UHGV virus genome: UHGV-0351052
DNA: 64,000 nucleotides
Origin: a virus
Direction: 5' to 3' (one strand)
Below, in pieces: positions 40,070 through 61,395 of the stretch. Numbering within the stretch: the first letter of the stretch is position 1; each line of letters starts with the position of its first letter. The position numbers were made by a program, and so were the translations under genes. The notes below the pieces were generated by a model. The model ran no database searches and was not told the origin of the DNA. It worked only from the letters and a program-made list of their open reading frames with translations.

Positions 40070-40077
40070 GGAATAAT

Positions 40078-41172
40078 ATGGCAATTGTTAAAGAAATAAC
40101 TGCTGATTTAATTAAAAAGTCTGGCGAGACAATTTCAGCTGGACAGAGTACTAAATCAGAAGTAGGAACTAAAACATACACAGCCCAGTTTCCAACTGGG
40201 CGTGCTAGTGGGAATGACACTACAGGGGACTTCCAGGTAACAGATCTATATAAGAATGGATTATTATTTACTGCATACAATATGTCATCTAGGGATTCTG
40301 GAAGTCTCAGAACGATGAGATCTAACTACTCTTCTTCATCTTCTAGTATTTTACGTACAGCCAGAAACACTATCAGTAATACAGTATCAAAACTGTCAAA
40401 TGGATTAATATCAGATAATAATTCAGGAACAATAAGTAAAGTTCCTGTTGCAAATATTCTTTTACCGAGATCTAAATCCGATGTTGATACATCATCACAT
40501 AGATTTAACGATGTTCAAGATAGTCTTATTACAAAAGGTGGAGGTACTGCTACTGGTGTGTTAAGCAATATGGCTTCAACTGCAGTATTTGGAGCACTGG
40601 AAAGTATAACACAAGGTATAATGGCTGATAATAATGAACAGATTTATACGACAGCCAGAAGTATGTATGGTGGTGCTGAGAATAGAACTAAAGTGTTCAC
40701 TTGGGATTTGACTCCGCGTTCCACGGAAGATTTAATGGCTATTATTAATATCTATCAATATTTTAACTATTTTTCTTATGGTGAAACGGGTAAATCTCAA
40801 TATGCTGCTGAAATAAAAGGATATCTAGATGAGTGGTATCGCTCTACTTTTATTGAGCCATTAACTCCAGAAGATGCAGTTAAAAATAAGACGTTATTTG
40901 AGAAAATGACATCGAGTTTAACTAACGTTCTTGTAGTTTCAAACCCGACAATTTGGATGGTTAAAAACTTTGGCGCAACTTCTAAATTTGACGGAAAAAC
41001 AGAAGTGTTTGGACCGTGTCAAATTCAAAGTATTAGATTTGATAAAACTCCGAATGGTAATTTTAACGGATTAGCTATTGCTCCTAACCTTCCAAGTTCT
41101 TTTACACTCGAGATTACTATGAGAGAGATTATCACGTTAAACCGTGCTTCTTTATATACGGGGACTTTCTAA
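40078..41172 (+). CDS. 48: Baseplate-tail tube junction protein gp48
   Basis: 364 aa; order/size as in T4. Confidence 0.9.
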   Translation: MAIVKEITADLIKKSGETISAGQSTKSEVGTKTYTAQFPTGRASGNDTTGDFQVTDLYKNGLLFTAYNMSSRDSGSLRTMRSNYSSSSSSILRTARNTISNTVSKLSNGLISDNNSGTISKVPVANILLPRSKSDVDTSSHRFNDVQDSLITKGGGTATGVLSNMASTAVFGALESITQGIMADNNEQIYTTARSMYGGAENRTKVFTWDLTPRSTEDLMAIINIYQYFNYFSYGETGKSQYAAEIKGYLDEWYRSTFIEPLTPEDAVKNKTLFEKMTSSLTNVLVVSNPTIWMVKNFGATSKFDGKTEVFGPCQIQSIRFDKTPNGNFNGLAIAPNLPSSFTLEITMREIITLNRASLYTGTF

Positions 41173-42137
41173 TGTATTCTTTAGAGGAATTTAATAACCA
41201 AGCAATAAACGCAGACTTCCAACGTAATAATATGTTTAGCTGCGTTTTTGCAACAACTCCATCAACTAAAAGCTCTTCGTTGATAAGTTCAATTAGCAAC
41301 TTTTCTTATAATAACTTGGGCCTAAATTCAAATTGGTTAGGATTAACTCAAGGTGATATTAATCAGGGAATTACCACGCTAATTACAGCTGGCACACAAA
41401 AACTGATAAGAAAATCAGGGGTTAGTAAATATCTTATTGGTGCCATGAGTCAACGTACAGTTCAAAGTTTATTAGGCTCATTCACAGTTGGTACATATTT
41501 AATTGACTTCTTTAACATGGCATATAACTCATCTGGATTGATGATATATTCTGTAAAAATGCCAGAGAACAGATTATCCTATGAAACTGACTGGAACTAT
41601 AATTCTCCTAATATTCGTATAACCGGAAGAGAATTAGATCCTTTGGTTATTTCATTTAGAATGGATTCAGAAGCTTGTAACTATCGTGCAATGCAAGACT
41701 GGGTTAACGCTGTTCAAGACCCAGTAACTGGACTGCGTGCTTTGCCACAAGATGTCGAGGCAGATATTCAGGTTAATCTTCATGCTCGTAATGGATTACC
41801 TCATACTGCAGTGATGTTCACCGGATGCATTCCAATGTCAGTGAGCGCTCCTGAGTTATCATATGATGGAGATAACCAAATAACTACGTTTGATGTTACT
41901 TTTGCGTATAGAGTCATGCAGGCTGGAGCAGTTGATAGACAAGCTGCGCTTGAGTGGCTTGAATCTGCTGCTATAAATGGCATTCAAAGCGTTCTCGGAA
42001 ATAGTGGAGGTGTTACTGGATTATCTAATTCGCTTTCACGACTTAGTAGATTAGGTGGAACTGCTGGAAGCATTTCAAACATTAATACTATGACGGGAAT
42101 TGTCAATTCGCAAAGTAAAATATTAGGAGCAATATAA
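41172..42137 (+). CDS. 54: Baseplate-tail tube initiator gp54
   Basis: 321 aa; order/size as in T4. Confidence 0.9.
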   Translation: MYSLEEFNNQAINADFQRNNMFSCVFATTPSTKSSSLISSISNFSYNNLGLNSNWLGLTQGDINQGITTLITAGTQKLIRKSGVSKYLIGAMSQRTVQSLLGSFTVGTYLIDFFNMAYNSSGLMIYSVKMPENRLSYETDWNYNSPNIRITGRELDPLVISFRMDSEACNYRAMQDWVNAVQDPVTGLRALPQDVEADIQVNLHARNGLPHTAVMFTGCIPMSVSAPELSYDGDNQITTFDVTFAYRVMQAGAVDRQAALEWLESAAINGIQSVLGNSGGVTGLSNSLSRLSRLGGTAGSISNINTMTGIVNSQSKILGAI

Positions 42138-42140
42138 CAA

Positions 42141-42171
42141 TGGGGACCGAAAGGTCCCCATATTTTTATTT
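42141..42171. terminator. Terminator hairpin after gp54 (TGGGGACC-GAAA-GGTCCCCA + T-rich tail)
   Basis: Perfect 8-bp stem with GNRA loop then TATTTTTATTT; marks end of the plus-strand late block. Confidence 0.8.
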
Positions 42172-42456
42172 GCGGAATGAAATGAAAGCAGAAACTGAAG
42201 CAACTAAACTATCTTCAATATAAACTTCAATTTTTACCGGAGCTTCTGACTCAAATTTACCTGTTACTACACCCTGAAAAATACTTTCAGTCTGTTCTGG
42301 CTTTGAAAAATTTTCAGAAGGAAAAATTCCAAACTTTTTATCTGTTCCGAAAATTTTGATAAATTCATCATAAACTGCTTCATTAAAAGCATTATCAGCA
42401 GGAATAACGCCTTCAACTACAAGTTCTTGACCTAAAAAGCGTAAAGAAGATTTCAT
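42166..42456 (-). CDS. Hypothetical protein (first gene of minus-strand block, downstream of promoter-like repeat)
   Basis: 96-aa ORF; GAGGA Shine-Dalgarno 8 nt upstream of ATG within the 54-bp repeat. Confidence 0.6.
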   Translation of the reverse strand: MKSSLRFLGQELVVEGVIPADNAFNEAVYDEFIKIFGTDKKFGIFPSENFSKPEQTESIFQGVVTGKFESEAPVKIEVYIEDSLVASVSAFISFRK

Positions 42457-42463
42457 TTTGTGT

Positions 42464-42517
42464 TCCTCATGTTATGTCAGTAAGACTACTATAACACAAC
42501 ACGAGGGACTTGTAAAC
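42464..42517 (-). promoter_or_regulatory. 54-bp element, copy 1: early-promoter-like (GTTTAC -35, TATAGT -10) plus leader with SD; identical to copy at 57900-57953
   Basis: Minus strand reads GTTTACAAGTCCCTCGTGTTGTGTTATAGTAGTCTTACTGACATAACATGAGGA. Confidence 0.6.
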
Positions 42518-44574
42518 TACATTTTGAACTTTTTAGACATTCCATTGATGTTAACCAAAGAAGCTAAGATTTGAGAAACTTCATTTTCCTCTTCTTTTGA
42601 TTCTTCTACAAGGAATTGATTAAATCCAGCCATTGGACGAACTTCACCAGTTTCCATTAGATGGTCGCCATCATATACTGATTCTTCTAATTGTTCAGAA
42701 GGAGGAACGATTGTACCTTCGATTAGATACTTGTTATAAGCAGTTTCTTTCATAAAGTACGTACTTACTTTATTAATCTTCAGTAAAATTCCACGCGGTA
42801 GAATAACTTCAGCTTCTGATGGAAATCCTGATAAATGACCTGGAACGATAACTTTGATTCGCTCAGCTCCTTTAATTACCATACCCACGCTAGTTTCAGC
42901 ATCTTCATTAGCATATGTAGAATGACTACCCATATGCATCAAATCTTCTGCATCAACAGAACCTTCTCCTTCGCCAGAAAATACTGCACCGGAATCATCT
43001 AGAGCCATATAGTTTTTACCATGCTCACCGAAGATATTTGGTTTAAGCGATGTGGATACGAAGTTCTTGAAATAGAACATTTTGTTTTCAATGTTATGAC
43101 GCAAAGTTTTAAAGGTAACTTCTTGTCCACGATAAAGCGTAGTTCCTGGAGGAAGAACTGAACCTTTAGCGAATGCAGAATCCAACGTCTCGATGTGCTT
43201 AATGGCACGTTCCATATATTCTTCACGGGTAGAATCTGGTTTACCCAAGAGGAACGAGTTCATTTCAACATATGAATCTGCACAATAATCTTCAATTACA
43301 TCAGACTCAGCCTGAGTCAGTCCTTTTGGAGTTACTTCGGTGCTTGCGTATTCATATGCCTGAGCAGCAGATTCATTAATCAATTTATAAATGCCATTCA
43401 TGACAAATTGAATAATAGCTACCTTTTCGTCTGGTGTGGCTTTAGAACCTTTAACTAAATCATTGATAATTTTCTTAATAACATCAAAGCTATTAGAAAT
43501 ATTAATGTCAGCGAGATCGCTTAAAATTTTATCGGTTTTATAATCAAAGAATTCTTTATTCTTTAAATATTCTTGAGAACCTTGATGTGTTATATCGCTC
43601 TGCAGCCTGATAGACGGATCACGTAAACGCGCATGGGCCAATGCAATATGATTTCGGAAGCTTTCTAGTTCATAATCGTTAGATTTAAAACGAGAGGCAC
43701 TTCTCATACCACCGATAGCTCCTTTGCCGAAGTTTGAACCAATCTGGATAACGCCAGAATTCATTGGTCCTTCTGCTTTATATACCGGAACTTTAGATTC
43801 AAACTCTTGATATTTCTTGGCAGCGAAGCTATCACCCTGAAGTGAAGCATCGACAGTAGAATATTGAGCTTGTGCTGCTAATCGACGACTAATTTTAGTT
43901 TTCTGAATAACCGCTTGGTCAGTACGTTTATCATTTTCTAAAGCAATAGAAGCAGCAACAGCGACAGCTTTAGGAACAGCATTACCTGTTTTAACGTCTA
44001 CATAAACATCACCGACCTTCGATTCAACTTTTGTGAATAACTCAGTTGAAATAGGAGGTACACCTGGAATGTCTTCTAAATTGGCATTTTTACGGTAAAC
44101 CATAATATATGCATACTTTTTATCATAGTCCCAGATTTCCTTTAAAAGAACATAACGACCTGCTCCTTTAGTACGTACTAAACGGTCAGCAATAACTTGC
44201 ATTTGACGAGCAGCTCCATTTGTTTTACTTTTTAGTACGCGGAATAAGCATGCGTCAATTTTATACTGTTTCATTGTTTGAAGAGCAGTATCAAAAACCG
44301 CATTAATGACACCAATTGGATTTCCACCCAAGTTTTTAAGTTTAACTAATGATAGTTTCTCATTAACACCTATCATTACGATATGCATCATTTTATCGCC
44401 TGGCTTAACGTTTTTATTTGTATCACCGCCAGAGGTGTATGTACAAAATCTAAATCCAGGAAGCACGCTTTCTTCACCGGCTTGAATAGCAAAAATTTGA
44501 GGTATTTTATGCTTAGGATTTAAGTTAACAACCGGCGCCGAAGCGCCGTCAAATAATTCTGTAATAAGTTCCAT
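42517..44574 (-). CDS. Alt-like ADP-ribosyltransferase, paralog A (downstream copy)
   Basis: 685 aa; C-terminal region has R (TTLYRGQ), S-T-S (FVSTSL) and E-x-E (SEAEVILPRG) motifs of R-S-E class ADP-ribosyltransferases; N-terminus homologous to paralog B. Confidence 0.85.
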   Translation of the reverse strand: MELITELFDGASAPVVNLNPKHKIPQIFAIQAGEESVLPGFRFCTYTSGGDTNKNVKPGDKMMHIVMIGVNEKLSLVKLKNLGGNPIGVINAVFDTALQTMKQYKIDACLFRVLKSKTNGAARQMQVIADRLVRTKGAGRYVLLKEIWDYDKKYAYIMVYRKNANLEDIPGVPPISTELFTKVESKVGDVYVDVKTGNAVPKAVAVAASIALENDKRTDQAVIQKTKISRRLAAQAQYSTVDASLQGDSFAAKKYQEFESKVPVYKAEGPMNSGVIQIGSNFGKGAIGGMRSASRFKSNDYELESFRNHIALAHARLRDPSIRLQSDITHQGSQEYLKNKEFFDYKTDKILSDLADINISNSFDVIKKIINDLVKGSKATPDEKVAIIQFVMNGIYKLINESAAQAYEYASTEVTPKGLTQAESDVIEDYCADSYVEMNSFLLGKPDSTREEYMERAIKHIETLDSAFAKGSVLPPGTTLYRGQEVTFKTLRHNIENKMFYFKNFVSTSLKPNIFGEHGKNYMALDDSGAVFSGEGEGSVDAEDLMHMGSHSTYANEDAETSVGMVIKGAERIKVIVPGHLSGFPSEAEVILPRGILLKINKVSTYFMKETAYNKYLIEGTIVPPSEQLEESVYDGDHLMETGEVRPMAGFNQFLVEESKEEENEVSQILASLVNINGMSKKFKM

Positions 44575-44577
44575 GAT

Positions 44578-46635
44578 TTATCCTTGAACGAACTTGTAAG
44601 GCATGTTTGCAATATCTATGCAAGATGCAATAATTCCAAGAGATGATTCTACTTTTTGTTTAACATTTGATGAAACAAATGATGCAAAATCAACTCTGTC
44701 TTCTATTTCAATATCACCTGTCATTGCAACTACTTCACCGGTTTCCATTAGACGGTCACCGTCATAAATTACTGATTCGGTGAGTTCTTCTGTAGTCATA
44801 ACTTCAGCTTGAATAAGCTTGTTGTTAGTTTTAGCTGTTCCATCATTGTAAGATGCGTCGGTTATTTTATTGACTTTGACCATCAATCCACGCGGCAAAA
44901 TGACTTCCATTTCATTTGAAGGCGCTAAACTTCCACCTGGTAAAACAACGTTGACTTTATCAGCCCCAGTAATAACCCATCCAATTCCAACTAAATTATC
45001 GCTAGAATTAACAAGTCCTTCATCGTTTTTATCGATAGAAATGTTTAGACGCTTTTCGTCTGGTAAAACACCCACAGCTGAATCAGTCATCCAAGTACCA
45101 AAAATGTTTGGATATAATGATGTTGATACAAAATTTCTAAAATAAAAAACTCGATTTTTTACCAATGCTTCATATATTGAAGGTAACATTCGCTGTGAAC
45201 GATATAAAGTAATACCTTTTGGCAGTCGATCACCATTTTTAAAGGCTGAATCTAAATTATCGATGGCTTGTTCTATTTCTGGTGCTGTTAAAATACTTGT
45301 ACGCTCATCTGGATTATATAATCCCAAAAGAGCATTATTCATGTCTACATATCCTGAACCTACGTATTCACGAATTCCGCGTTTTTGTGCCGGTGTGTAT
45401 TTAGATGAATCTTTATTTTCGACTATAGAATGCAATGACCATCCAACGGTAAGAGCATATCCACGTAATTCTCTTCGAATAATCTTTGTTTTTATTGCGT
45501 TCCAAGAATTTTGCACTAACTCATTCGCAGCATCTTGATTTAAATGCGAATGCTTGTTAATATTTCTTTCTAACCAAGCACCTTTATATTTTTCTAAAGT
45601 ATCATCAACTATAGAAGCAATAGTTTCTAAAGTTTTTATTGAAGTAATAGATTCTTTTCGTAATCTTTCTAAAGCTTTATTTTTTATTTCTGCATTAACA
45701 TCAGATTCTTTATCTTCAGGAATTATAGAAGCTTCTCTGAATGCCATTCCAGCTGTAACACTATTAAGAGCATTCTCTAATGCAAATCCTGAAGTAGAAA
45801 TAACAGTTAATTCGTTAGCATCAGAAATTAAAGGCGCGTCAGCGGGTTTATTTAATTCTGCTGCTGAAGCCTCAAATTTTTGAAACATTGGTGTTTCAAA
45901 TCTAGAAGATTCTAACGATTGACTTTGTGCAATTGCTCTACGGGAAATTTTAACTTTAACGATTACAGCTTGGTCAGAACGTTTATCATTTTCTTGCGCA
46001 ATAGATGCTGCAATTGCCTCGTTTTTAGTTACTTGAGCTCCAGTATCTTTATTGATATAAACATCACCGACCTTCGATTCAACCTTAGTAAAGAGCTCGG
46101 TACTAATTTCCGGAACTCCTGGAATGTCTTCTAGTGATACATTTTTGCGATGTATAAGAATATATGCATACTTTTTATCATAATCCCAGAGTTCCTTAAG
46201 AAGGACGTATCTGCCACCTGAACGACTACGGATAAGTCTATCAGCAATAACTTGAATCTGTCGAGCTTGACCAGCGGTTTTAGACTTAAGAATACGGAGC
46301 ATACAGGCATCAATTTTATACTGACGCATTGTTTGCATTGCAACAGTAAAAACTGAATTGATATAATTAATTGGGCTTGGACCGAGACCTTTTAATTTAG
46401 CAATTGAACCTTTAGCAGTTAATGTAAAAGGAACAATATGCATCATTTTATCGCCCATCTTTAAATCACGATTAGTATCACCTCCAGATGTATAGGTACA
46501 TAAACGAAAGCCTGGTTGTTCAATTGCGTCATCAACATGAACTGAAAAAATTTGCGGTATTTTCTTCTTTGGATTTAAGTTTGTAATTGGAAGAGTAGTA
46601 TCTTCGTCAAATAGTTCTGTAATTAGTTCCATCAT
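44578..46635 (-). CDS. alt: Alt-like ADP-ribosyltransferase, paralog B (upstream copy, behind late promoter)
   Basis: 685 aa; R (ITLYRSQ), FVSTSL and NEMEVILPRG motifs; N-terminus MMELITELFD... conserved with paralog A. Which copy corresponds to canonical alt is not certain. Confidence 0.85.
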   Translation of the reverse strand: MMELITELFDEDTTLPITNLNPKKKIPQIFSVHVDDAIEQPGFRLCTYTSGGDTNRDLKMGDKMMHIVPFTLTAKGSIAKLKGLGPSPINYINSVFTVAMQTMRQYKIDACMLRILKSKTAGQARQIQVIADRLIRSRSGGRYVLLKELWDYDKKYAYILIHRKNVSLEDIPGVPEISTELFTKVESKVGDVYINKDTGAQVTKNEAIAASIAQENDKRSDQAVIVKVKISRRAIAQSQSLESSRFETPMFQKFEASAAELNKPADAPLISDANELTVISTSGFALENALNSVTAGMAFREASIIPEDKESDVNAEIKNKALERLRKESITSIKTLETIASIVDDTLEKYKGAWLERNINKHSHLNQDAANELVQNSWNAIKTKIIRRELRGYALTVGWSLHSIVENKDSSKYTPAQKRGIREYVGSGYVDMNNALLGLYNPDERTSILTAPEIEQAIDNLDSAFKNGDRLPKGITLYRSQRMLPSIYEALVKNRVFYFRNFVSTSLYPNIFGTWMTDSAVGVLPDEKRLNISIDKNDEGLVNSSDNLVGIGWVITGADKVNVVLPGGSLAPSNEMEVILPRGLMVKVNKITDASYNDGTAKTNNKLIQAEVMTTEELTESVIYDGDRLMETGEVVAMTGDIEIEDRVDFASFVSSNVKQKVESSLGIIASCIDIANMPYKFVQG

Positions 46636-46655
46636 ATCCTCTCTAGTGTTTATTC

Positions 46656-46663
46656 TATTTATA
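46656..46663 (-). promoter_or_regulatory. Late promoter box TATAAATA (minus strand) upstream of Alt paralog B
   Basis: Complement of 46656-46663 reads TATAAATA about 20 nt upstream of the ATG. Confidence 0.6.
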
Positions 46664-46685
46664 AAATTAAAGGCCCGAAGGCCTT
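46661..46685 (-). terminator. Terminator hairpin downstream of the gene 30 unit (minus strand)
   Basis: AAGGCC-UUCG-GGCCUU followed by T-rich tract on minus strand. Confidence 0.6.
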
Positions 46686-46873
46686 TAGTAATCTAGTGGT
46701 AAGAGAGTACGATATATTTCAAACTTTGGACCTTTTTCATAGGCATCAAATGTTTCTGTGAATTTATTATAAGCATATGCATCTACAAATTCGAGAATGA
46801 CTTGTGATACAGAAGTAGAAACATCTCCACCTTCTTTTTGAGCAATGACAATTGTTTCTAAGTAAGCTTTCAT
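46685..46873 (-). CDS. Small hypothetical protein translationally coupled to DNA ligase gene
   Basis: 62-aa ORF; ATG overlaps gp30 stop (ATGA). Confidence 0.55.
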   Translation of the reverse strand: MKAYLETIVIAQKEGGDVSTSVSQVILEFVDAYAYNKFTETFDAYEKGPKFEIYRTLLPLDY

Positions 46874-48333
46874 AAACCAGTTACCTCATGAAAATCACCA
46901 AATACATCTTCGAACGTATTAGCTTTAGTTTTATCTTCGCGTAAACGAATCGCAATCGGAAGAAATAATTTAACGTAATCAGTGCGGCCATCAGATTTTA
47001 ACCAACCGTTGCATTCGCACTCTAGAATTTTTCCAATATAATAATTTTGGTTTTCCATAATGCGAGTACGGTCAAGTTCATGCGATTTTACACCGGCTTT
47101 ATCTTTTAAGCCTGAACCAGCATTTACTTTAATTTTTCCACATTCTGATTCAAGAATAAATCCACCCGCTTTAGTAGGGTCTTTGCGGTGAGGATAAATT
47201 CCTACAATTTTTAAATCAACATCAATTACTTCTTTAAATTTATAGAGATTTTTTGAACGAGCATTTTCCCATAATCCATCGATATTTTTGAGAATAATAC
47301 CTTCAAGACCTTGGTCAATATACTTTTTATAAATTACCTTAGCTTCATCTAGGTTATTTACTACCTGGTTTTCAATTAAAATTACTTTATCATATCCTGA
47401 TGTCATTTGTTCTAGTTTAGAAAAACGTACATCATATTTTAAACGAAACGCTGGAAGACCGTATATTTCTACCAACGGGACATAATCCCAGACCTGAAAC
47501 TTCATGCATTGAGCTTCTTTTTCAGAAATGGTTCCCTTTAAAGATTTATTGGCGATTCCATTAGAAGTAGTACGAGATTCCGCTACTTCGGCGAATTCTT
47601 TAGCTTTACTAATTTCAGGATAAGCATCAAAAAGAAAATCTAGGCCTTCTGGTTCCTTTTTAACTTGCTCATGGTATACCAATTCGCCATCAATTAACAC
47701 ACCTTCTGGATGAATCTGGCGGGCTTCAGCAGTCATTTTGATTAATTCTTCCTTAAGAAGATCTAATCCTAGATATTCATTACCAGCTCGTGATAAAAGA
47801 CGAACATCATCTAATTCATCGCCTCGGACTTCAGCAAAACACCGGGCTCCATCTGCTTTTAACTGTGCAAAGGCTGGAAATTTGATATTCTTACTAATGC
47901 CTTTTTCATCATAAGAACTTGCCAGCATTTGAGGTTGTTCAGGAATTAAACCTGGCCAAACTTTGTTTGCAATAGATACTGAAGCACCGCATTCAAGATC
48001 TCGCATCATCACTCGACGCAAAACTTCAACATCATCCTTTTTACCATCAGTGATATATCCAGTTAATTCCTCAATTGCAGCATTTCCAGTCAATTTCCGA
48101 GTAGCTAACGTGAATTCAATGAAGTCAAGCATATCGGTAATAGTCAGCATTCCAAAACTCTGGGTAGCAATACCAGGTTTAGGCCATTTCTTGATATAAT
48201 ACTGCAACCCACGAGAATAAGTTAGACGATATACTCGTTTAAGCAATTCATTATCTTTATTCTTTTCAAGAATTGCTTGCTTCTGCTTAGTTGAACCAAT
48301 AGATGCTATTTCGTTCAGAATTTTAAGAATCAT
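46870..48333 (-). CDS. 30: ATP-dependent DNA ligase gp30
   Basis: 487 aa; begins MILKILNEIASIGSTKQKQAILEKNKDNELLKRVY, adenylation motif in AQLKADGARC; matches T4 DNA ligase. Confidence 0.95.
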   Translation of the reverse strand: MILKILNEIASIGSTKQKQAILEKNKDNELLKRVYRLTYSRGLQYYIKKWPKPGIATQSFGMLTITDMLDFIEFTLATRKLTGNAAIEELTGYITDGKKDDVEVLRRVMMRDLECGASVSIANKVWPGLIPEQPQMLASSYDEKGISKNIKFPAFAQLKADGARCFAEVRGDELDDVRLLSRAGNEYLGLDLLKEELIKMTAEARQIHPEGVLIDGELVYHEQVKKEPEGLDFLFDAYPEISKAKEFAEVAESRTTSNGIANKSLKGTISEKEAQCMKFQVWDYVPLVEIYGLPAFRLKYDVRFSKLEQMTSGYDKVILIENQVVNNLDEAKVIYKKYIDQGLEGIILKNIDGLWENARSKNLYKFKEVIDVDLKIVGIYPHRKDPTKAGGFILESECGKIKVNAGSGLKDKAGVKSHELDRTRIMENQNYYIGKILECECNGWLKSDGRTDYVKLFLPIAIRLREDKTKANTFEDVFGDFHEVTGL

Positions 48334-48599
48334 TATTCATCCTTCAGAGTTTGGTTTACAGCTCTATTATAAATCAATTCATCATTAAGCTCAGTCAAAG
48401 ACTTATGATATGTGGTTCTAACTTTATTTCCTTGCATCCAGTGCTTGATATAAATGAAACCTTGCTCTACACATTTTTTAAAAATTCGTTCATCTTTTTG
48501 AGCTCGGAATTCTGGATTGCATCTAAAAAATTGATTTACGTGACCGTAATCACGTGTAGTATTACCTTCATTTTCATAAATAGTGTGAACGACAAACAT
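48333..48599 (-). CDS. Hypothetical protein (30.1-like position)
   Basis: 88-aa ORF immediately upstream of ligase. Confidence 0.6.
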   Translation of the reverse strand: MFVVHTIYENEGNTTRDYGHVNQFFRCNPEFRAQKDERIFKKCVEQGFIYIKHWMQGNKVRTTYHKSLTELNDELIYNRAVNQTLKDE

Positions 48600-49438
48600 T
48601 AGAATGCTCCTTGGAAAATATTATTAGCACCAGTAGGTCTATTATACAAATACTCTATGCCACCGGGTTTAATATAGTTCCATGTCTGAAACGGATGCGT
48701 CTGATATGGATGATATAGATGATTATAAGGATTAAATCCAGGAGTTCTCCAGGTAGTGTTCCAAGGAAAAGAATTGTTTTTGATCATCTTTTCAATTACA
48801 TCTTTTATAGCTTTTTCACTATCAAAACTTTCTTTATTTTCCTTCGATGGAAAAAGCTTATTCTCTACATCGTTCCATGTATAAACTCGCTGAGCAGTTT
48901 TTGGAATACTGTCACGTTCCCCTCGAGCCATCCAATAAACAGGAACACTTAATATTTCACTCGCGTGATCGCAGTGGTGAGCGAGATCGTCAATATAACA
49001 AATTACGTTATATTTCTCTTTTGCCTTTTTGAACAACTCTTCTTTTGAAGAATCATGACCACACATCATTACTTCTGAGAAGGCACCAGGAAAAAGAGCA
49101 TTCAAATTAAATTGACGATTCAACAGAGCGTCAATAGAATCACCCAATGCTGTAACAGCAACAAAATTATAATCTTCTTTTAATTTGTTAATTACACATA
49201 GAGCATCTTTATACGGAGACAAGTAACGAATAAAATCTGAACGATTGTATTTTTCAATTAACTTGACGCCAAGTTCTTCATCACAATTAAAGAGTTTACC
49301 AGGAGAAATAAATTTCTCATCTTGGATCATTTTTAAAATATGTTCTAATGGAAGATTATATTTCTGAGCAAAATAAGGAAGGCCTGATTGCCAGCTTAAA
49401 CATACTCCATCAATATCAGTTAAAATAGTAGGCTTCAT
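48599..49438 (-). CDS. HAD-superfamily-like hydrolase with aromatic/Pro-rich C-terminal extension (30.2-like position)
   Basis: 279 aa; N-terminal LTDIDGV (HAD motif I-like DxDGx) and later YIDD; C-terminal 80 aa rich in W/Y/P/N. Confidence 0.6.
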   Translation of the reverse strand: MKPTILTDIDGVCLSWQSGLPYFAQKYNLPLEHILKMIQDEKFISPGKLFNCDEELGVKLIEKYNRSDFIRYLSPYKDALCVINKLKEDYNFVAVTALGDSIDALLNRQFNLNALFPGAFSEVMMCGHDSSKEELFKKAKEKYNVICYIDDLAHHCDHASEILSVPVYWMARGERDSIPKTAQRVYTWNDVENKLFPSKENKESFDSEKAIKDVIEKMIKNNSFPWNTTWRTPGFNPYNHLYHPYQTHPFQTWNYIKPGGIEYLYNRPTGANNIFQGAF

Positions 49439-49899
49439 AGAGAGTCTCTTAATAGGTTTAACACATCAATAAATTCAGCTTCGGTTAGTATTGTATCATC
49501 TTTTGTTAGACCACTAGCCATGCTGTGCTTCAAAACTTTTCCTTTCGAGGCTTGTAATGCATCACGAAAGCCCTTGTTTTGGATCGCTGCTTCAAAATAT
49601 GCATTTGTGTATAATTCTTTCCACGCCGGGGAGTATCTTGAAAACGGAACTCCAAGCCAGAAGAGGGTCCCACGGTCCTGAGCTCTAGCATAAGACCTTC
49701 CAGCTTGTTGGGCGGCAATCCCGGATAACCCAAATATACGACGTTGTTGTTCAGCATTTTTCACCTTACATCCTTGAAGGAATCCTTCGAGACCTCCAAA
49801 TTGGATACCATCCATAACGAAAGGCCATTGGGCGAAATTGCTTAATGCACATGATGGCCATCTAAAATTGCTTCTTATTTCTAGCTCAGACATTTTCAA
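49435..49899 (-). CDS. NADAR / YbiA-like domain protein (30.3-like position)
   Basis: 154 aa; segment LSNFAQWPFVMDGIQFGGLEGFLQGCKV parallels the YbiA/NADAR core FSNFAAWPIKVDGKTWPTSEHYFQAQKF as I recall it. Confidence 0.6.
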   Translation of the reverse strand: MKMSELEIRSNFRWPSCALSNFAQWPFVMDGIQFGGLEGFLQGCKVKNAEQQRRIFGLSGIAAQQAGRSYARAQDRGTLFWLGVPFSRYSPAWKELYTNAYFEAAIQNKGFRDALQASKGKVLKHSMASGLTKDDTILTEAEFIDVLNLLRDSL

Positions 49900-50092
49900 T
49901 ACTTATAATTTCAACATCAGCCCAATGACCATAGCAAGGAAGACGAAATTCAACTGGCCAGTTAGGGTCCTTTTCTAATATAATAGACTTAACTTGTGGT
50001 TCTTCATGTTCATCGGTATATGGATTTTTATCTGTTACTTTATATGTGACCTTAATGTACTGAATTCCAAAAATCTTATTAATTATATTCAT
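49886..50092 (-). CDS. Hypothetical small protein
   Basis: 68-aa ORF in tightly packed overlapping minus-strand array. Confidence 0.5.
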   Translation of the reverse strand: MNIINKIFGIQYIKVTYKVTDKNPYTDEHEEPQVKSIILEKDPNWPVEFRLPCYGHWADVEIISIENV

Positions 50093-50286
50093 ACTAATTC
50101 CTTTAATCCGTAGATAGGAGATAATTCATCACCCATACGAAGGTCTTCATTTCCATCTACCCAGGAAACAATATAAGCCTCTTTTATTTGAATACCACTC
50201 CATTTAAATGGAGGTAGAACCTTAGAAATTAATCCAGGTATACCAACTCCCTTTAATTCAACAGTTTGACCTAAAAAGAATTTCAT
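50089..50286 (-). CDS. Hypothetical small protein
   Basis: 65-aa ORF, ATGA-type overlap with neighbours. Confidence 0.5.
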   Translation of the reverse strand: MKFFLGQTVELKGVGIPGLISKVLPPFKWSGIQIKEAYIVSWVDGNEDLRMGDELSPIYGLKELV

Positions 50287-50573
50287 TAGAACCTCATCTG
50301 AAAACCGTGCGATTTAACATTACCGCCGCCAATATCAGAAATGTTAATTTCACGCGCAATTGAAGGGTCAATGTCAATTTCGCGATTGAGTTTAGTGATA
50401 GCTAAAGTATCACGCCCATTTACAGTACGAAACTCTAAAGGACAAACCACATCAACGTAGTTTTTAATCGATTCGCTAGTAGGTTGCAAATGTGCAGGAA
50501 GGTCTTTAGGCGACTTTGAGAAAACTACTTCGCAGAAGTTTTTACGGGTATCAAAATAAGTAGTCATAAACAT
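50286..50573 (-). CDS. Hypothetical protein
   Basis: 95-aa ORF. Confidence 0.55.
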   Translation of the reverse strand: MFMTTYFDTRKNFCEVVFSKSPKDLPAHLQPTSESIKNYVDVVCPLEFRTVNGRDTLAITKLNREIDIDPSIAREINISDIGGGNVKSHGFQMRF

Positions 50574-50614
50574 AACATTTTCCTCAGTAAGGGGCCAAAG
50601 CCCCTCATTTTATT

Positions 50615-50980
50615 TTAAATATCAAATTCATTAAGAACTACATCAAAGATTGCTTCAAGATGCTCAGGTTTGGCTTTGTTACTCAGAATATGACGAATCC
50701 AAGTTTTAACTAAGAGTTTACGATTAACACCATTCCAGCAAGGATGAGTCCCTAAATCGCGTTGACGAAAATCATCATCCAGAGCGATTTTAAAGTTGGA
50801 ACCTTCCATCGTGATTGAAACCGTGATGCCATTTTCAAATCGCATATAAACGTAATTAGGAGTCATATACTGTTCAATTTCGCATACTGATCCATTTTGA
50901 TGTTTCCAAAGGCAAATAGTATCAATAGAACCTGCAATACCATTAGAAACATATTTACGTTCAAAGTTGATGTAGTTCAT
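50615..50980 (-). CDS. Hypothetical protein
   Basis: 121-aa ORF. Confidence 0.55.
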   Translation of the reverse strand: MNYINFERKYVSNGIAGSIDTICLWKHQNGSVCEIEQYMTPNYVYMRFENGITVSITMEGSNFKIALDDDFRQRDLGTHPCWNGVNRKLLVKTWIRHILSNKAKPEHLEAIFDVVLNEFDI

Positions 50981-51048
50981 TTTTATTCTCCGGGATGTTT
51001 AATTGCGGTACAGGTATATAATATCATATTCTGTACCAAAGTAAACAA

Positions 51049-51381
51049 TTATTTTACTACTTTCCAGTGCTTCATGTCAAGTTTACCAACTTTTTTCATC
51101 TTCTCAATTAAGCGTTCGGCACGTTGGCGAGCTGTAACATAATGCCATTCACCTAATTCATTTTGTTCAATTTTTCCAACGATTACTGTATTCAATTCAT
51201 AAATCCAACCAGTAAAGAAATTATGAACTTGAATTGTAAAGGTGAAATCTGTTCCCATACCTTCTGCTGTTTCTACTTCAATAATATCACCTTCAACTGC
51301 CATTAAGAACCACATAGTTTCATCATATTTACCATTGAAGCATTTAGTTTTAACTGTAGCGTTCAGATTAATCGTTTTCAT
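51049..51381 (-). CDS. Hypothetical protein
   Basis: 110-aa ORF. Confidence 0.55.
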   Translation of the reverse strand: MKTINLNATVKTKCFNGKYDETMWFLMAVEGDIIEVETAEGMGTDFTFTIQVHNFFTGWIYELNTVIVGKIEQNELGEWHYVTARQRAERLIEKMKKVGKLDMKHWKVVK

Positions 51382-51460
51382 TTTATTCTCCTTTGTTTGT
51401 GTAAGATAATACTATCACAAAGGAACCATACTGTAAACAACTTTGTGCAATCTTTGGAAA

Positions 51461-51486
51461 ATAAAAAAGGACTCCCGAAGGAGTCC
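51461..51486 (-). terminator. Strong intrinsic terminator (minus strand): GGACUCC-UUCG-GGAGUCC + U6
   Basis: Perfect 7-bp stem, UUCG loop, followed by TTTTTTAT on minus strand. Confidence 0.8.
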
Positions 51487-51491
51487 TCAAC

Positions 51492-51668
51492 TTATGCTTT
51501 CTGCTTACCAAAACGAGAAGCATCATCTCGAAGAACCGCACGTGCTCGGCGCATGATCTTCTCAACAGTTTGATTGATACGAGAGTTCGACCCACGCTTG
51601 TAACCAGCGCGTTTAGAATCACCAACTTTCTTTTCAACTGCTTTCTTTGCTTTAGCTTGTTTTGCCAT
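51492..51668 (-). CDS. Small highly basic protein (Lys/Arg-rich)
   Basis: Track ORF 72 aa; internal start gives MAKQAKAKKAVEKKVGDSKRAGYKRGSNSRINQTVEKIMRRARAVLRDDASRFGKQKA. Confidence 0.5.
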   Translation of the reverse strand: MAKQAKAKKAVEKKVGDSKRAGYKRGSNSRINQTVEKIMRRARAVLRDDASRFGKQKA

Positions 51669-51912
51669 TATAAATTCTCTTTTAAATGAAAATGCAGGAC
51701 TTATTGGCATTGCCTGCGCAAGCCCTCAAGGGGAACATAGGTTTTTGGATATTTAACGACCAGGATAACCATAAACCCGTCATCATTCACATTCAAGAGG
51801 TACACCGTAAAACTGCCGGGGTCTTAAAACTATAATGATTCGCAAATCATTAATCAGACAGTTCGACGGCTCCTCGATTTAGCTCACACTAAGGCAGTGA
51901 ATCTCCAATGAA

Positions 51913-52161
51913 TTACTTCAGTGTTACCACAAAGTGACGAACTGCTTTTCGTGCAGCAGAAGCCAGAGGCTTAGCATATTTAAGTTCATCTTTTTCCTGA
52001 AGCTCAGCAGCTAATGCAGTTTGAGCAGGATTCAGATGTTTGAAATAACGCAGGATTTCAAGAGCTTCGGCTTCAACATCAATAGATGCGCCATAGTTTT
52101 CGTGACCATTATTCCATGCGTTTCGTTGCAGTTCAAGAGCGTGTTGTAATTGTTTAATCAT
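51913..52161 (-). CDS. rIII: rIII lysis-inhibition accessory protein
   Basis: 82 aa; size and position between 30.x array and gene 31 as in T4. Confidence 0.8.
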   Translation of the reverse strand: MIKQLQHALELQRNAWNNGHENYGASIDVEAEALEILRYFKHLNPAQTALAAELQEKDELKYAKPLASAARKAVRHFVVTLK

Positions 52162-52308
52162 TTAAAAATTCTCGTTAGAGATTAAAACTCGGTAGTCACG
52201 TTCTTCTGAATTTCATCTTCTTTCGACAGATCTCTCAGTTGTAGACTACCACGTAGAATTGTTCGGTTAACTTATTATTCCGACACCCAATTCATATTAT
52301 TATTTATA

Positions 52309-52644
52309 TCACTTATAAAGACACGGAATAGCTTTATAGTGACAGGTAACAAATTTTTGTTTAATTTCTTTTGGCTGCTTAAGACCCAGAGCTACAAAAG
52401 GATGCGGAACGTTTCGAATTTGACCAACTGGAAGAGAAGTCAAATCACCAACTTCGCAAAAACCTTCAGGAACATCAGGACCGACAGAGTGAACTACACA
52501 CAGTTCAGGAACTTCACCTTGAACACGTTTACCGATAATAAGTCCTGATTCTGTGACTTCTTCATCACCAGCCTGTGCAGGTTCAGAAACTAAAATAACA
52601 TATTCACCGACAGCACGAATTGGTAGCTGTTGTACTTCAGACAT
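52309..52644 (-). CDS. 31: Co-chaperonin gp31 (GroES analogue)
   Basis: 111 aa; begins [22 protein letters not shown]; matches T4 gp31. Confidence 0.9.
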
Positions 52645-52700
52645 CGTTTTTCCTTTTTGTTAACAGATGAATTAATAATAACAAATAATTCTTAAAGCAT

Positions 52701-53009
52701 TTATTTACCAATAAATTGAAGCAAATGCTCAACTTTCATACCATTAACGGAAATCAATTTGTCAATAGAAAAACCTCGCCATGCACCAAGCTCAACATCA
52801 AATACTGGAATCATATCCGTAGATTCTTTCCGAGTAGATTCAGTCAATTTACCAGTTTGCATGGTTGGCATAAAGTCTGCATCACGAGTACCTTTCATAA
52901 CACGAATAGTACCATCAGACTTTTCAAAAACTACGTTTGAAACACCCATGGACAATTTAGTTTTCAAAATTTCGCGAATTGCTACTTTTTGTTCAGTCGT
53001 CAGTTTCAT
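52701..53009 (-). CDS. Hypothetical protein (31.1-like)
   Basis: 102-aa ORF. Confidence 0.6.
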   Translation of the reverse strand: MKLTTEQKVAIREILKTKLSMGVSNVVFEKSDGTIRVMKGTRDADFMPTMQTGKLTESTRKESTDMIPVFDVELGAWRGFSIDKLISVNGMKVEHLLQFIGK

Positions 53010-53246
53010 TTATTTACCTATTACAGTTTTAATATGAGTTGTTCCACGTTCTTTAAGGGTGGAAAGTAATTTTTGGCATTTTTCTAAATCAGATTTCCAA
53101 CTATATGGTCTATCAATACTAGTCCAACCAGTTTTATAATACTGTTTCCATTTAGAGAAAAAATATTTCTTATACTCTACAGCAAATGAGATGTTCTCGT
53201 TAGAATAAGAACTAATTGCTGTGAGCTTTACCAAACGAAATTTCAT
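53010..53246 (-). CDS. Hypothetical protein (31.2-like)
   Basis: 78-aa ORF. Confidence 0.55.
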   Translation of the reverse strand: MKFRLVKLTAISSYSNENISFAVEYKKYFFSKWKQYYKTGWTSIDRPYSWKSDLEKCQKLLSTLKERGTTHIKTVIGK

Positions 53247-53827
53247 TATTCACCGCAGAATTCGTTGATATTTTTCCAGTTTAACTTATTCAAGTTTTTC
53301 TTAGGAACATTAAACACTTCAATACCTGCATTTCGCAGAATATCATCCCAACCAGGTTTATTTTTGTCGTATGTTTCACAATAAACCAGCTTTTTAATAC
53401 CAGATTGAGCTATCGCTTTTGCACAATCTGGGCAAGGAGAAAGTGTTACATACATAGTAGCACCTTCAATAGAAGAACCATTTCGTGCAGCAAACAAAAT
53501 TGCATTTAGTTCAGCATGAATTTCATTTTTAGACGACCATTCAGAGTGAGCGCTCCGGTGTTCTTTTGCCAAGACAAAACGATCAGTTGAACCAAATGAT
53601 ATGCATTCAGGCTTATGACTTTGAATGATAGTATGTTTAGGCTTATTCAACAACCAACCTTGCTCAGCAGCATAATCACAACAGTTCACACCCCCTGCGG
53701 GTGAACCATTATACCCAGTAGAAATAATACGTCCATTCTTTTCAATTACTGCTCCTACCTTCCAGGAGCAACACTTTGATTCTTGTGATACTAAATACGC
53801 AATTTGAAGTACTGTACTCGCTTTCAT
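53246..53827 (-). CDS. cd: dCMP deaminase
   Basis: 193 aa; zinc-binding deaminase motifs HAELNA and PCPDCA. Confidence 0.95.
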   Translation of the reverse strand: MKASTVLQIAYLVSQESKCCSWKVGAVIEKNGRIISTGYNGSPAGGVNCCDYAAEQGWLLNKPKHTIIQSHKPECISFGSTDRFVLAKEHRSAHSEWSSKNEIHAELNAILFAARNGSSIEGATMYVTLSPCPDCAKAIAQSGIKKLVYCETYDKNKPGWDDILRNAGIEVFNVPKKNLNKLNWKNINEFCGE

Positions 53828-54162
53828 TTCATAATCACCAGATAAGCAGATTTAGCAGTTTCAACACGATAAATTTCGTGACGAAGTTTAGTTATACTTT
53901 TAACAACAGAAGTAATTATATTCAGCCCATCTTTAAAGCGGTTTTTCTTATCAATAAAAACTGCGCCAGTCATCTTTTTGTGAAGCTCAACTGGATACTT
54001 CGTCACAATAATAGCATCATACACAGAAGGATGAATACTATTCACCAGAGTATCATTCATTAAAGTTATTCTAATGAACTTTGCTGTTTCAGAGTCAAGC
54101 GCTCTATGATCACCAGTATCGTTTTCAAGACAATTATCAATTATATCAGTTAAATTCATCAT
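53824..54162 (-). CDS. Hypothetical protein (cd.1-like)
   Basis: 112-aa ORF overlapping cd start. Confidence 0.6.
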   Translation of the reverse strand: MMNLTDIIDNCLENDTGDHRALDSETAKFIRITLMNDTLVNSIHPSVYDAIIVTKYPVELHKKMTGAVFIDKKNRFKDGLNIITSVVKSITKLRHEIYRVETAKSAYLVIMK

Positions 54163-54395
54163 AGTACGCCATACACCCTTTGTGCTTCAACTAATCCATC
54201 AAAATCCAATTTGAGATGTGTTATTTGATCGCCATCACCTGGATTCACAATTACTAATACTGAACGAGAAGTTTCGGTAATAACACGAACCGATGTTTCA
54301 GGAAATCGTTCAGAAACCTTATTTACCAATTCCTGAGCAAATAGTTTAACTTTTTCTTGGAATTCTTTAACAGTAATTGGTTTTTCGCTTAGCAT
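54159..54395 (-). CDS. Hypothetical protein (cd.2-like)
   Basis: 78-aa ORF. Confidence 0.55.
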   Translation of the reverse strand: MLSEKPITVKEFQEKVKLFAQELVNKVSERFPETSVRVITETSRSVLVIVNPGDGDQITHLKLDFDGLVEAQRVYGVL

Positions 54396-54559
54396 GTTGA
54401 TCCTAGCTCCTTACTTTCAACATTTTTAACTAATTTGACAGAAACTAATTCAGCATCTTGAGTAATCATTACCGGACCTTCTTCATACTCTTCAAGATAT
54501 TCTAGAGCTTTCTTTTTAGCTTCTTCCTTCGTATCAGTTTGAGCATAGATATAAAACAT
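54389..54559 (-). CDS. Possible small acidic ORF (56 aa), below the supplied track length cut-off
   Basis: Hand translation MFYIYAQTDTKEEAKKKALEYLEEYEEGPVMITQDAELVSVKLVKNVESKELGSTC; no clear SD; end overlaps downstream gene start. Confidence 0.3.
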   Translation of the reverse strand: MFYIYAQTDTKEEAKKKALEYLEEYEEGPVMITQDAELVSVKLVKNVESKELGSTC

Positions 54560-54576
54560 ACAACCAGTAATACCTA

Positions 54577-54918
54577 CTACTTTCCACTTAATTTCTTTAT
54601 CAGTTTTAATTTCAAATTTACTGACAGAATCATCTTTTTGAACTTCTTCGAAAAAAGAATATATTCTAACATATAAGCAATTGAAAATAACGGGCTATCT
54701 TTATAGGATTCGCCCATTACATCAATAGCTTTATACCAGCAGTCATCAATTTCGCGTTTAATGCTAATAACATTTTTCGCAGGATCTATTTTTACTTTAA
54801 ATGAATTTTCCCCAATAAACTGGGTGATTCGTTTATTAGCCCCGCAAGTTTCATTAAAAATATCTTTATATCCAGTTTTAAAGCGATAAACCTTATCTTC
54901 TTCAAACCATTCGCTCAT
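54577..54918 (-). CDS. Hypothetical protein (cd.4-like)
   Basis: 113-aa ORF. Confidence 0.55.
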   Translation of the reverse strand: MSEWFEEDKVYRFKTGYKDIFNETCGANKRITQFIGENSFKVKIDPAKNVISIKREIDDCWYKAIDVMGESYKDSPLFSIAYMLEYILFSKKFKKMILSVNLKLKLIKKLSGK

Positions 54919-54980
54919 TTCAATTTCCTCACTTGTTTTGGTAGAGCTATAATATCACAACTCTACCGTAAAGTAAACTA

Positions 54981-55256
54981 TTAAATCGCTTTGAATTCCG
55001 CAGTTTGAGATTCAAAACGAATGTCGCCTTTGATAACTAGCTCAGCATCAAGACCGAATACGACAATGATATGCGCTGACCCAGGATACAGTTGAATAAC
55101 AACAGAATCCACCTGGTCTGGAAGCAAAGTGTTTAATACATGAGTCACTTGAGCATGGATTCGAAGTTCGGCTGCGTTATCAAGCTTTTCAAACATATTA
55201 TTAGCGATAATTTGACTAAACACTACTTCTACGATTTTAGAATAAGTCGGAAACAT
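54981..55256 (-). CDS. Hypothetical protein (cd.5-like)
   Basis: 91-aa ORF. Confidence 0.55.
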   Translation of the reverse strand: MFPTYSKIVEVVFSQIIANNMFEKLDNAAELRIHAQVTHVLNTLLPDQVDSVVIQLYPGSAHIIVVFGLDAELVIKGDIRFESQTAEFKAI

Positions 55257-55320
55257 ATTTACCTCACATAATTTTCTTCAAGCCAATTAATAATATCCCA
55301 AGTTTCATGATGCTACGCCA

Positions 55321-56521
<1,201 letters not shown>

Positions 56522-56525
<4 letters not shown>

Positions 56526-56752
56526 TTATTTTTCTCAACCAATGATTGAATATAATCATGCAAGTCTTTAGATGCTTTACCCCACTTATTTTGATATTCA
56601 TTTTTGAGATTAGCACGTGATTGAGCTAATAAAACATCATTAGTTGGAGGTAAAGATTCTAACCGCTGAATCTGGCGTCCATAAATCATTGCAGCCATCT
56701 CGGATTCATAAATCAATCCTTTGAGATGTTCAAATTGATGCCATGAAATCAT
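56522..56752 (-). CDS. Hypothetical protein
   Basis: 76-aa ORF. Confidence 0.5.
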
Positions 56753-57048
56753 TTACATTTATCCTCTTTTAACTCTTGACGATAATAACATATCATAGTT
56801 TTCTGGTCATGTACATATCGTTTTACATCATTAAGCCAAATACGAAATTCCTGGGAATCTTCAAATGGCATACCGACCCAAGCTTTACCATCGATAACTT
56901 TAACTTGCCAAGATAGTTTAGCTTCATCATATGACTTTATTTGTACAGGCCAATTAGGATGAACTGTTTCTTTCTTTACTTCTAGAGGCTTTGTCGAACA
57001 ACCAACTAAAAGACCAATAGATAATATTACTGCTGATAGTTTAATCAT
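56749..57048 (-). CDS. Outer-membrane spanin-like lipoprotein (o-spanin candidate)
   Basis: 99 aa; signal peptide ending in lipobox LLVGC; follows the i-spanin candidate (separate, non-embedded arrangement). Confidence 0.65.
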   Translation of the reverse strand: MIKLSAVILSIGLLVGCSTKPLEVKKETVHPNWPVQIKSYDEAKLSWQVKVIDGKAWVGMPFEDSQEFRIWLNDVKRYVHDQKTMICYYRQELKEDKCK

Positions 57049-57398
57049 TTAGAAAGGTCCTGGATGTCTTCTGCGAACTTGTTGAAGGAGTTGTTGATTT
57101 GTTTTTCAACCAATCCTGGCTTATGAGCCACCACATCCGCCTTCTTTGCATCTTTGCGCAGTTTTTCATTTTCACGCTCAATAGCAGCAATTGCCTCACG
57201 ATTTTTATTATTCATCGCATCAATATAATTATACTGAATTCGCAAATTATTTAATGCTAAAGCGTTTTCATTGGCTGTTTTTGTAATTTCAGTAACTGAT
57301 GTTTCTAGTCTTTCTACCTTATTTTTTAAAATAATAGATGTTCCGCCAAATGCTATTACAAGTAATAGCAATCCAGCTGTAAAATTACTTACATGCAT
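57045..57398 (-). CDS. Inner-membrane spanin-like protein (i-spanin candidate)
   Basis: 117 aa; N-terminal TM segment FTAGLLLLVIAFGGTSIIL followed by helical charged periplasmic region. Confidence 0.65.
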   Translation of the reverse strand: MHVSNFTAGLLLLVIAFGGTSIILKNKVERLETSVTEITKTANENALALNNLRIQYNYIDAMNNKNREAIAAIERENEKLRKDAKKADVVAHKPGLVEKQINNSFNKFAEDIQDLSK

Positions 57399-57895
57399 AA
57401 AGTTTTAATAACCTCTATAATATCGTCTTGAGAAAGACCGTTAATTAAAATATGATGTTCAGCTGGAGATTTAGAAATTTTAAAGCATGCCTCAACATCT
57501 TCTGCCATATCCGATGCACTACGATTTGGATTACTAATACCAAGGCGGTGTTTTCCCGTCAAAGGATTAACGATGATATAGCATTTGCAGCTATTGATAT
57601 GAACATTAGGTTGAGTCTGATTAATGAACACTTCACAATCATACTTAGCGAGTTGATTTTCTAAAAAGACTTTCATCTCTTCAACCGCATCAGGAAGCAT
57701 ATCACGGGCTTTCTCAAGACGACGATTTCGATATTCTTTAATGGTCGTTTTCCGCTTGACTTGCTTAGCTAAATCTTTCTTAAGATCGGTGATATATCCA
57801 ACTCGACGATTTCCTTTGAATACAGAAATCCCATCTGTAGTATCACCGTATGCTTCAACGACCATTTCAGTAGTAATAAGTTGTAAATCCATCAT
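57389..57895 (-). CDS. alc: Alc, inhibitor of host transcription on cytosine-containing DNA
   Basis: 168-aa track ORF (start may be second Met, 167 aa); begins MMDLQLITTEMVVEAYGDTTDGISVFKG; position upstream of pseT cluster as in T4. Confidence 0.8.
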   Translation of the reverse strand: MMDLQLITTEMVVEAYGDTTDGISVFKGNRRVGYITDLKKDLAKQVKRKTTIKEYRNRRLEKARDMLPDAVEEMKVFLENQLAKYDCEVFINQTQPNVHINSCKCYIIVNPLTGKHRLGISNPNRSASDMAEDVEACFKISKSPAEHHILINGLSQDDIIEVIKTLCM

Positions 57896-57899
57896 AAAG

Positions 57900-57953
57900 T
57901 CCTCATGTTATGTCAGTAAGACTACTATAACACAACACGAGGGACTTGTAAAC
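57900..57953 (-). promoter_or_regulatory. 54-bp element, copy 2: early-promoter-like plus leader, identical to 42464-42517; upstream of alc
   Basis: Exact 54-bp identity with copy 1. Confidence 0.6.
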
Positions 57954-57956
57954 AGC

Positions 57957-59544
<1,588 letters not shown>

Positions 59545-59552
59545 AATAAAAT

Positions 59553-59566
59553 GGGCCTTGCGGCCC
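59553..59566 (-). terminator. GNRA hairpin (GGGCC-GCAA-GGCCC) plus T-rich tract between nrdB and denA
   Basis: Minus strand GGGCCGCAAGGCCC followed by ATTTTATTATG (denA start). Confidence 0.55.
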
Positions 59567-59571
59567 ACTCC

Positions 59572-61344: not shown

Positions 61345-61395
61345 AATTTTTCCTCTTAGTTAATAGATAGTGACTCGTCCGTGAGTCAAATTATA

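Follow-up and report, generated by a model that had tools for sequence, protein, structure and literature searches.

The question raised by this locus is what a small gene in the early region of a virus genome encodes, and what the virus would use its product for. The window is a stretch of 64,000 nucleotides of the virus genome UHGV-0351052. Near its DNA ligase gene lies a short open reading frame whose product an initial annotation had read as related to YbiA and the NADAR family. Two roles were proposed there: a counter-defence factor against ADP-ribosylating toxins, or a modulator of the phage's own ADP-ribosylation. We hold with high confidence that the gene is adfN, encoding a minimal single-domain NADAR enzyme that removes the guanine-linked ADP-ribose made by DarT1 from phage DNA.

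The minus-strand open reading frame at 49435..49899 is present, and its translation includes RSNFRWPSCALSNFAQWPFVMDGIQFGGLEGFLQGCKV. Read from a TTG at 49899 it has 154 aa, and read from an ATG at 49893 it has 152 aa. The annotated gene 30.3 of T4 and all full-length homologs begin at the position of this ATG, two codons past the TTG. The ATG also shares nucleotides with the stop codon of gene 30.4 upstream, which encodes 68 aa (ATGTCTGA). Translation of adfN almost certainly starts at the ATG (49893) and not at the TTG (49899), and the codons at 49894..49899 are probably not translated within the protein. Thus the frame described in the initial annotation stands, while its start and its product of 154 aa give way to the ATG and 152 aa. 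The gene and its surroundings on the ligase side are arranged as follows.

46870..48333, minus strand: ligase gene 30.
48599..49438, minus strand: gene 30.2, 279 aa, putatively HAD-phosphatase-like with an N-terminal DIDGV (DxDGV) motif and a start codon overlapping the stop of adfN.
49435..49893, minus strand: adfN (T4 gene 30.3), coding sequence of 152 aa plus stop, predicted phage-type NADAR ADP-ribosylglycohydrolase.
49894..49899, minus strand: codons TTG AAA, included only by the mechanical open reading frame call; full-length homologs start M-S-E-L-E.

The overlap between adfN and the 279-aa gene 30.2 is the ATGA at 49435..49438. Gene order is the same as in T4: alt, alt.1, 30, 30.1, 30.2, 30.3, 30.4 through 30.9, rIII, and 31. 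Because 30.3, 30.2, 30.1, and the ligase gene 30 all lie on the minus strand, 30.3 is transcribed first, upstream of the ligase. The earlier placement of the gene downstream of DNA ligase is therefore the reverse of the transcriptional order.

Judged by its sequence, the open reading frame belongs to a T4-like coliphage (Tequatrovirus) and is adfN, the ortholog of T4 gene 30.3. The product is identical to T4 gp30.3 at 149 of 152 residues (98%), with the substitutions V47A, L59I, and I125M, and it is 100% identical to the gp30.3 copy of vB_EcoM_FT. Many Tequatrovirus genomes share 97-98% identity with a 2.4-kb region around adfN. Over a larger span, positions 40000..64000 of the window (24 kb) are about 96% identical over 96% of their length to the Escherichia phages MLP2 and HP3. 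The protein matches the Pfam family PF08010 (Phage_30_3) over profile positions 1-138 of 138, with E=1e-69 and a score of 233 bits, where the cutoff is 36. It also matches phrog_652 (E=4e-51), a profile of 296 positions of which the window protein covers only 126-272.

Whether gp30.3 belongs to the NADAR fold is less easily read from sequence. The likeness between a segment of the protein and the conserved YbiA/NADAR core, on which the initial annotation was built, is real and weak at this level. A single-sequence phmmer search against the PDB finds YbiA (2b3w) at E=1.4, and a profile of 10 sequences searched against PDB sequences again has 2b3w as its best match, at E=0.053. Both alignments span the motif SNFA.WP...DG....E.F.Q..K, and in both of them E36 and K43 fall opposite the Glu and Lys of the YbiA segment 'SEHYFQAQK' (E-x-F-x-Q-x-x-K motif). 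Taken alone, the sequence tie between gp30.3 and YbiA is suggestive, marginal, and insufficient by itself.

Profile libraries behave similarly. A Pfam scan of the gp30.3 product at E<=1 gives no NADAR family (PF08719), and searches of NCBIfam and PADLOC give no match. A Pfam profile search had been suggested as a check in the initial annotation, with the lack of a significant hit counting against the call; what it returns is PF08010 in place of the NADAR family. Since Pfam keeps this clade as a separate family, the lack of a NADAR hit used alone would be a false negative.

The fold is settled by structure comparison. An AlphaFold2 model built from the family alignment has a mean pLDDT of 83 and a pTM of 0.82, and it shows the predicted NADAR fold, in which two small beta-sheets flank an alpha-helical core. 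In a Foldseek search of the PDB, YbiA 2b3w is joint first with a TM score of 0.70 and a probability of 1.00. It is accompanied by the Phytophthora NADAR with ADP-ribose, PnNADAR (8bau, TM 0.65, probability 1.00), and by the DarG1-type NADAR of Geobacter lovleyi (8bat, TM 0.59, probability 0.99). All other PDB matches have a probability below 0.1. On the predicted model, the gp30.3 product is a NADAR-fold protein, and the missing matches in Pfam NADAR, NCBIfam, and PADLOC were dismissed as an argument against it, the structure search being decisive. The structural comparison with YbiA that had been proposed as a second check agrees with the NADAR/YbiA call, as does the exclusive match to the YbiA, Phytophthora, and Geobacter NADARs with alignment of the catalytic Glu and Lys. 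One practical consequence is that the Pfam NADAR model misses the gp30.3 clade, and that such genes have to be called by structure comparison or through the PF08010 label.

The residues expected to carry the activity can be placed on the DNA.

49786..49788, minus strand: Glu36 codon GAA; predicted from the alignment and the YbiA match to be catalytic and to coordinate the distal ribose of ADP-ribose.
49765..49767, minus strand: Lys43 codon AAG; predicted from the alignment and the YbiA match to contact the ADP-ribose phosphates and adenine.
49525..49527, minus strand: His123 codon CAC, in the last beta-strand; invariant in the alignment and the phage-NADAR signature residue.
49441..49482, minus strand: C-terminal alpha-helix of the predicted model, residues 138-151, needed for full activity.

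E36, K43, and H123 are invariant in an alignment of 10 homologs, down to 40% identity. Counterparts of Glu36 are E43 of PnNADAR and E88 of E. coli C7 NADAR, and those of Lys43 are K50 and K95, respectively (PMC11543638). In T4, the E36A and K43A mutations each weaken the in vivo rescue provided by AdfN-T4, and the E36A protein serves as a catalytically inactive control in a DNA de-ADP-ribosylation assay (PMC11825919). The last predicted strand (residues 120-123) ends at H123. A His in this strand marks NADARs of the gp30.3 type; the YbiA family has a Glu and the DarG1 family an Asp there (PMC11543638, PMC11125620, PMC12945103). The three substitutions V47A, L59I, and I125M are conservative, lie away from the active site, and affect none of the known catalytic positions. 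The C-terminus of the window allele is intact, with 152 aa, no frameshift, and the 138-151 helix predicted.

What such a protein does is known from T4. Schuller et al. (2023) solved NADAR structures and found guanine-ADP-ribose to be hydrolysed by NADARs; as catalytic residues they named a Glu, a Lys, and an acidic residue of the last strand, where phage NADARs have a His (PMC11543638). A study in Toxins (2024) termed the phage NADARs 'gp30.3 proteins', and found that the T4 NADAR removes G-ADPr, and not T-ADPr, in vitro (PMC11125620). The methods of that study give the T4 NADAR construct as 'residues 1-208', compared with the 152 aa of T4 gp30.3 (PMC11125620).

The biological role was established by Johannesman et al. 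(Nat Commun 2025), who used recombinant phages to trace the resistance of T2 and T4 against DarTG1 to gene 30.3 and renamed it adfN (PMC11825919). With adfN deleted, T4 and T2 cannot form plaques on DarTG1 cells. RB69, whose own allele is non-functional after a frameshift that costs it the last 15 residues, is rescued by ectopic adfN; likewise, C-terminal truncation of AdfN-T4 weakens rescue. Purified AdfN-T4 strips ADP-ribose from DarT1-modified DNA, no binding between AdfN and DarT1 is seen in a two-hybrid assay, and AdfN-T4 does not counter the DarTG2 / DarT2 (thymidine) defence. AdfN is both necessary and sufficient for T-even phages to escape DarTG1 (all PMC11825919). The T4 NADAR also acts on G-ADPr RNA (PMC11833690), and phage NADAR is absent from the enzymes listed as reversing cytidine-ADPr in a summary table of Toxins 2026 (PMC12945103). 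Guanine-ADP-ribose hydrolysis by AdfN on DNA and RNA is thus covered by Toxins 2024, Nat Commun 2025, NAR 2025, and Toxins 2026.

Counter-defence against an ADP-ribosylating toxin, the first of the two proposed roles, is borne out by the T4 protein, which is 98% identical to that of the window and defeats DarTG1 (PMC11825919). The experiment with a DarT-type toxin suggested alongside it has already been published for the T4 protein, including both protection and guanine-ADPr hydrolysis. The NADAR identity and the anti-DarTG1 role are therefore correct but already known, and add no new biology.

For the window allele itself, guanine-ADPr glycohydrolase activity and protection from DarTG1 would be expected from the 98% identity, and we infer that the allele behaves like T4 AdfN, its three substitutions being neutral. 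The proposed course of events starts with expression of adfN from the early/middle gene block running from 30.9 to 30. Infection would trigger the host DarTG1 system, whose DarT1 toxin would ADP-ribosylate guanine in phage DNA and block replication. AdfN would then bind the ADP-ribose moiety, with Lys43 contacting the phosphates and adenine and with Glu36 and His123 flanking the distal ribose, and cleave the N-glycosidic bond to guanine. The DNA would be restored and replication would proceed. In all of this, AdfN would work without binding the toxin.

A different role is suggested by the genes on the far side of the ligase. These are two Alt-type ADP-ribosyltransferases.

44578..46635, minus strand: Alt-type ADP-ribosyltransferase, 685 aa, PF03496 E=5e-34, 96% identical to T4 Alt.
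42517..44574, minus strand: Alt-type ADP-ribosyltransferase, 685 aa, PF03496 E=8e-20, 42% identical to T4 Alt.

They form a tandem full-length pair, with 44578..46635 proximal to the ligase and 42517..44574 distal. The distal copy occupies the place of the decayed duplication remnants alt.-1/alt.-2 of T4. MLP2, HP3, and JB75 are likewise annotated with two Alt-type genes. The initial annotation had put the pair about 3 kb away, and the PF03496 matches and a distance of about 2.8 kb show that it is real.

With two such enzymes 2.8-7 kb from adfN and in the same orientation, the main job of AdfN could be to reverse or tune the ADP-ribosylation carried out by the phage's own Alt and ModA/ModB, with the anti-DarT effect a side effect. 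A comparable neighbourhood exists in Acinetobacter phage KARL-1, whose gp30.3 homolog likewise has the ligase and a gene for an RNA polymerase ADP-ribosylase nearby. In T4, the proximity of adfN and Alt reflects a conserved early-gene block and not a functional link at the operon level, and the homologs in Caulobacter, Rhizobium, and Ralstonia phages have no annotated ADP-ribosyltransferase gene within 3 kb. The chemistry also differs. T4 Alt modifies protein arginine, whereas NADARs act on base-linked ADP-ribose. This holds for every NADAR assayed, with guanine a substrate of all and cytidine of some; thymidine-ADPr and ADP-ribosylation at phosphate ends of RNA were tested and are not reversed (PMC11125620, PMC12945103, PMC11833690). 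The reported phenotype of adfN deletion is confined to DarTG1 hosts (PMC11825919). A main role in reversing or tuning the phage's own ADP-ribosylation is thus very unlikely, and the earlier suggestion that the protein modulates the phage's own ADP-ribosylation finds no support, given the base-linked substrates of NADARs.

The close structural match to E. coli YbiA, the joint best for the gp30.3 model, allows a further reading, in which gp30.3 is a housekeeping YbiA-like N-glycosidase acting on small molecules and not on DNA. Its candidate substrates would be riboflavin-pathway intermediates, free ADP-ribose derivatives, or immune signals of the cADPR type. Work cited in PMC11543638 and PMC11825919 ascribes the cleavage of riboflavin intermediates to YbiA, and Iyer et al. 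(2022) proposed that soluble ADPr derivatives are preferred by phage NADARs. However, the signature Glu of the YbiA family is a His in gp30.3, and the gp30.3 clade falls closest to the DarG1 antitoxins in phylogeny (PMC11825919). Moreover, direct DNA de-ADP-ribosylation and a DarTG1-specific phenotype have been demonstrated for T4 AdfN (PMC11825919). A purely housekeeping role is exceedingly unlikely. Small molecules may still be substrates besides DNA, and DarT1-modified DNA may not be the sole natural substrate of AdfN.

The favoured reading of adfN as a guanine-ADP-ribose hydrolase acting against DarT1 leaves part of the T4 results to be explained. The T4 NADAR gives no rescue from DarT1 toxicity in uninfected cells (PMC11125620), and AdfN-T4 rescues T5 and Bas25 only weakly, for which an additional T-even factor has been proposed (PMC11825919). 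Together, these two observations make the picture of a self-sufficient, free-standing hydrolase incomplete.

One candidate for such a factor is the adjoining gene 30.2. From the DxDGV motif, weak database matches, and depositors' labels, its product is a candidate HAD-phosphatase-like protein. The best PDB sequence match is a 5'(3')-deoxyribonucleotidase, weak at E=1.1; there is also a weak PHROG match to polynucleotide kinase, and some depositors label gp30.2 a phosphatase. It is found in 1440 phage records, against 1511 for 30.3, with a similar taxon spread. Only the N-terminal 175-195 aa of gp30.2 are conserved in distant T4-like phages. The two genes adjoin in T4, Bp7, MN01, and Acinetobacter phage KARL-1, and the pairing is kept in several Straboviridae genera. 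Speculatively, gp30.2 might process the ADP-ribose once AdfN has released it, or bring AdfN to DNA that is being replicated. No 30.2 was found within 3 kb of the 30.3 homolog in Aeromonas phage PS49, nor within 3 kb of the gp30.3 homologs in Caulobacter, Rhizobium, and Ralstonia phages. With the pairing missing in PS49 and in carriers outside the Straboviridae, gp30.2 was rejected as an obligatory partner of AdfN. That the translationally coupled 30.2 is the T-even factor needed by AdfN, an idea based on synteny, is improbable.

Several known systems can be compared with the window gene. The nearest is AdfN-T4 of the Tevenvirinae, which has the same slot between 30.4 and 30.2, the same 152 aa with E36/K43/H123, and an intact C-terminal helix. 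The window allele differs from it by the three substitutions.

Compared with the DarG1 antitoxins (E. coli C7; Geobacter/Trichlorobacter lovleyi, 8bat), the phage protein has neither the N-terminal extension nor the electropositive DNA channel. It consists of the core domain only, with 152 aa against the 219 of 8bat, and carries His123 where DarG1 has its catalytic Asp. Unlike DarG1, it cannot serve as an antitoxin in uninfected cells. The neighbours of adfN are the phage genes 30.4 and 30.2, with no adjacent DarT1 gene, and none of the defence-system models match 30.3 or 30.2.

Identity to YbiA 2b3w and Phytophthora NADAR 8bau is only 14-21%, and in gp30.3 the last-strand Glu of the YbiA/NADAR families is replaced by His. 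YbiA is a housekeeping protein of riboflavin metabolism. Cytidine-ADPr reversal is listed for the NADAR and YbiA NADARs, and not for phage NADAR (PMC12945103).

Other phage-borne orphan NADARs are AdfN-Bas32 (T5-like) and AdfN-Bas60 (Vequintavirinae). Both are specific for guanine and also act against DarTG1; they fall in other NADAR clades, stem from independent acquisitions, and work without a phage-specific cofactor. In contrast, AdfN of the T4 type requires the context of a T-even infection for full activity.

The window adds one more full-length, apparently functional adfN allele in a T4-like coliphage. Its phage is predicted to resist DarTG1, unlike RB69 with its truncated allele.

Straboviridae of Escherichia, Klebsiella, Aeromonas, Acinetobacter, and Vibrio make up most of the 1511 phage records with a gp30.3 homolog; a few others come from Caulobacter, Rhizobium, and Ralstonia phages. 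Many of the database homologs are short (86-126 aa), and some carry a second Pfam domain from neighbour genes, such as PF06919 Gp30.7, PF11097, or PF06019 Gp30.8. This suggests that frameshifts, deletions, or fusions comparable to the RB69 truncation are frequent at the 30.3 locus in natural T4-like phages. Phages with such a short gp30.3 might be sensitive to DarTG1.

A second gene has also been annotated inside gene 30.3 of T4.

49530..49757, minus strand: internal out-of-frame open reading frame 30.3', 75 aa, annotated in T4.

In Bp7 and MN01, where nucleotide identity is about 81%, no stop interrupts this frame. Synonymous recodings of AdfN give an equally long stop-free run in the +1 frame in 17-35% of cases, so the openness of 30.3' is no evidence of coding, and it was rejected as a second gene.

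The public labels of gp30.3 homologs are inconsistent. Most read 'hypothetical protein', one 'putative homing endonuclease', and one 'swarming motility YbiA-like protein'. The homologs concerned include those of the Rhizobium phages P10VF (3004..3465 of the locus) and RHph_Y68. The labels lag behind the AdfN literature.
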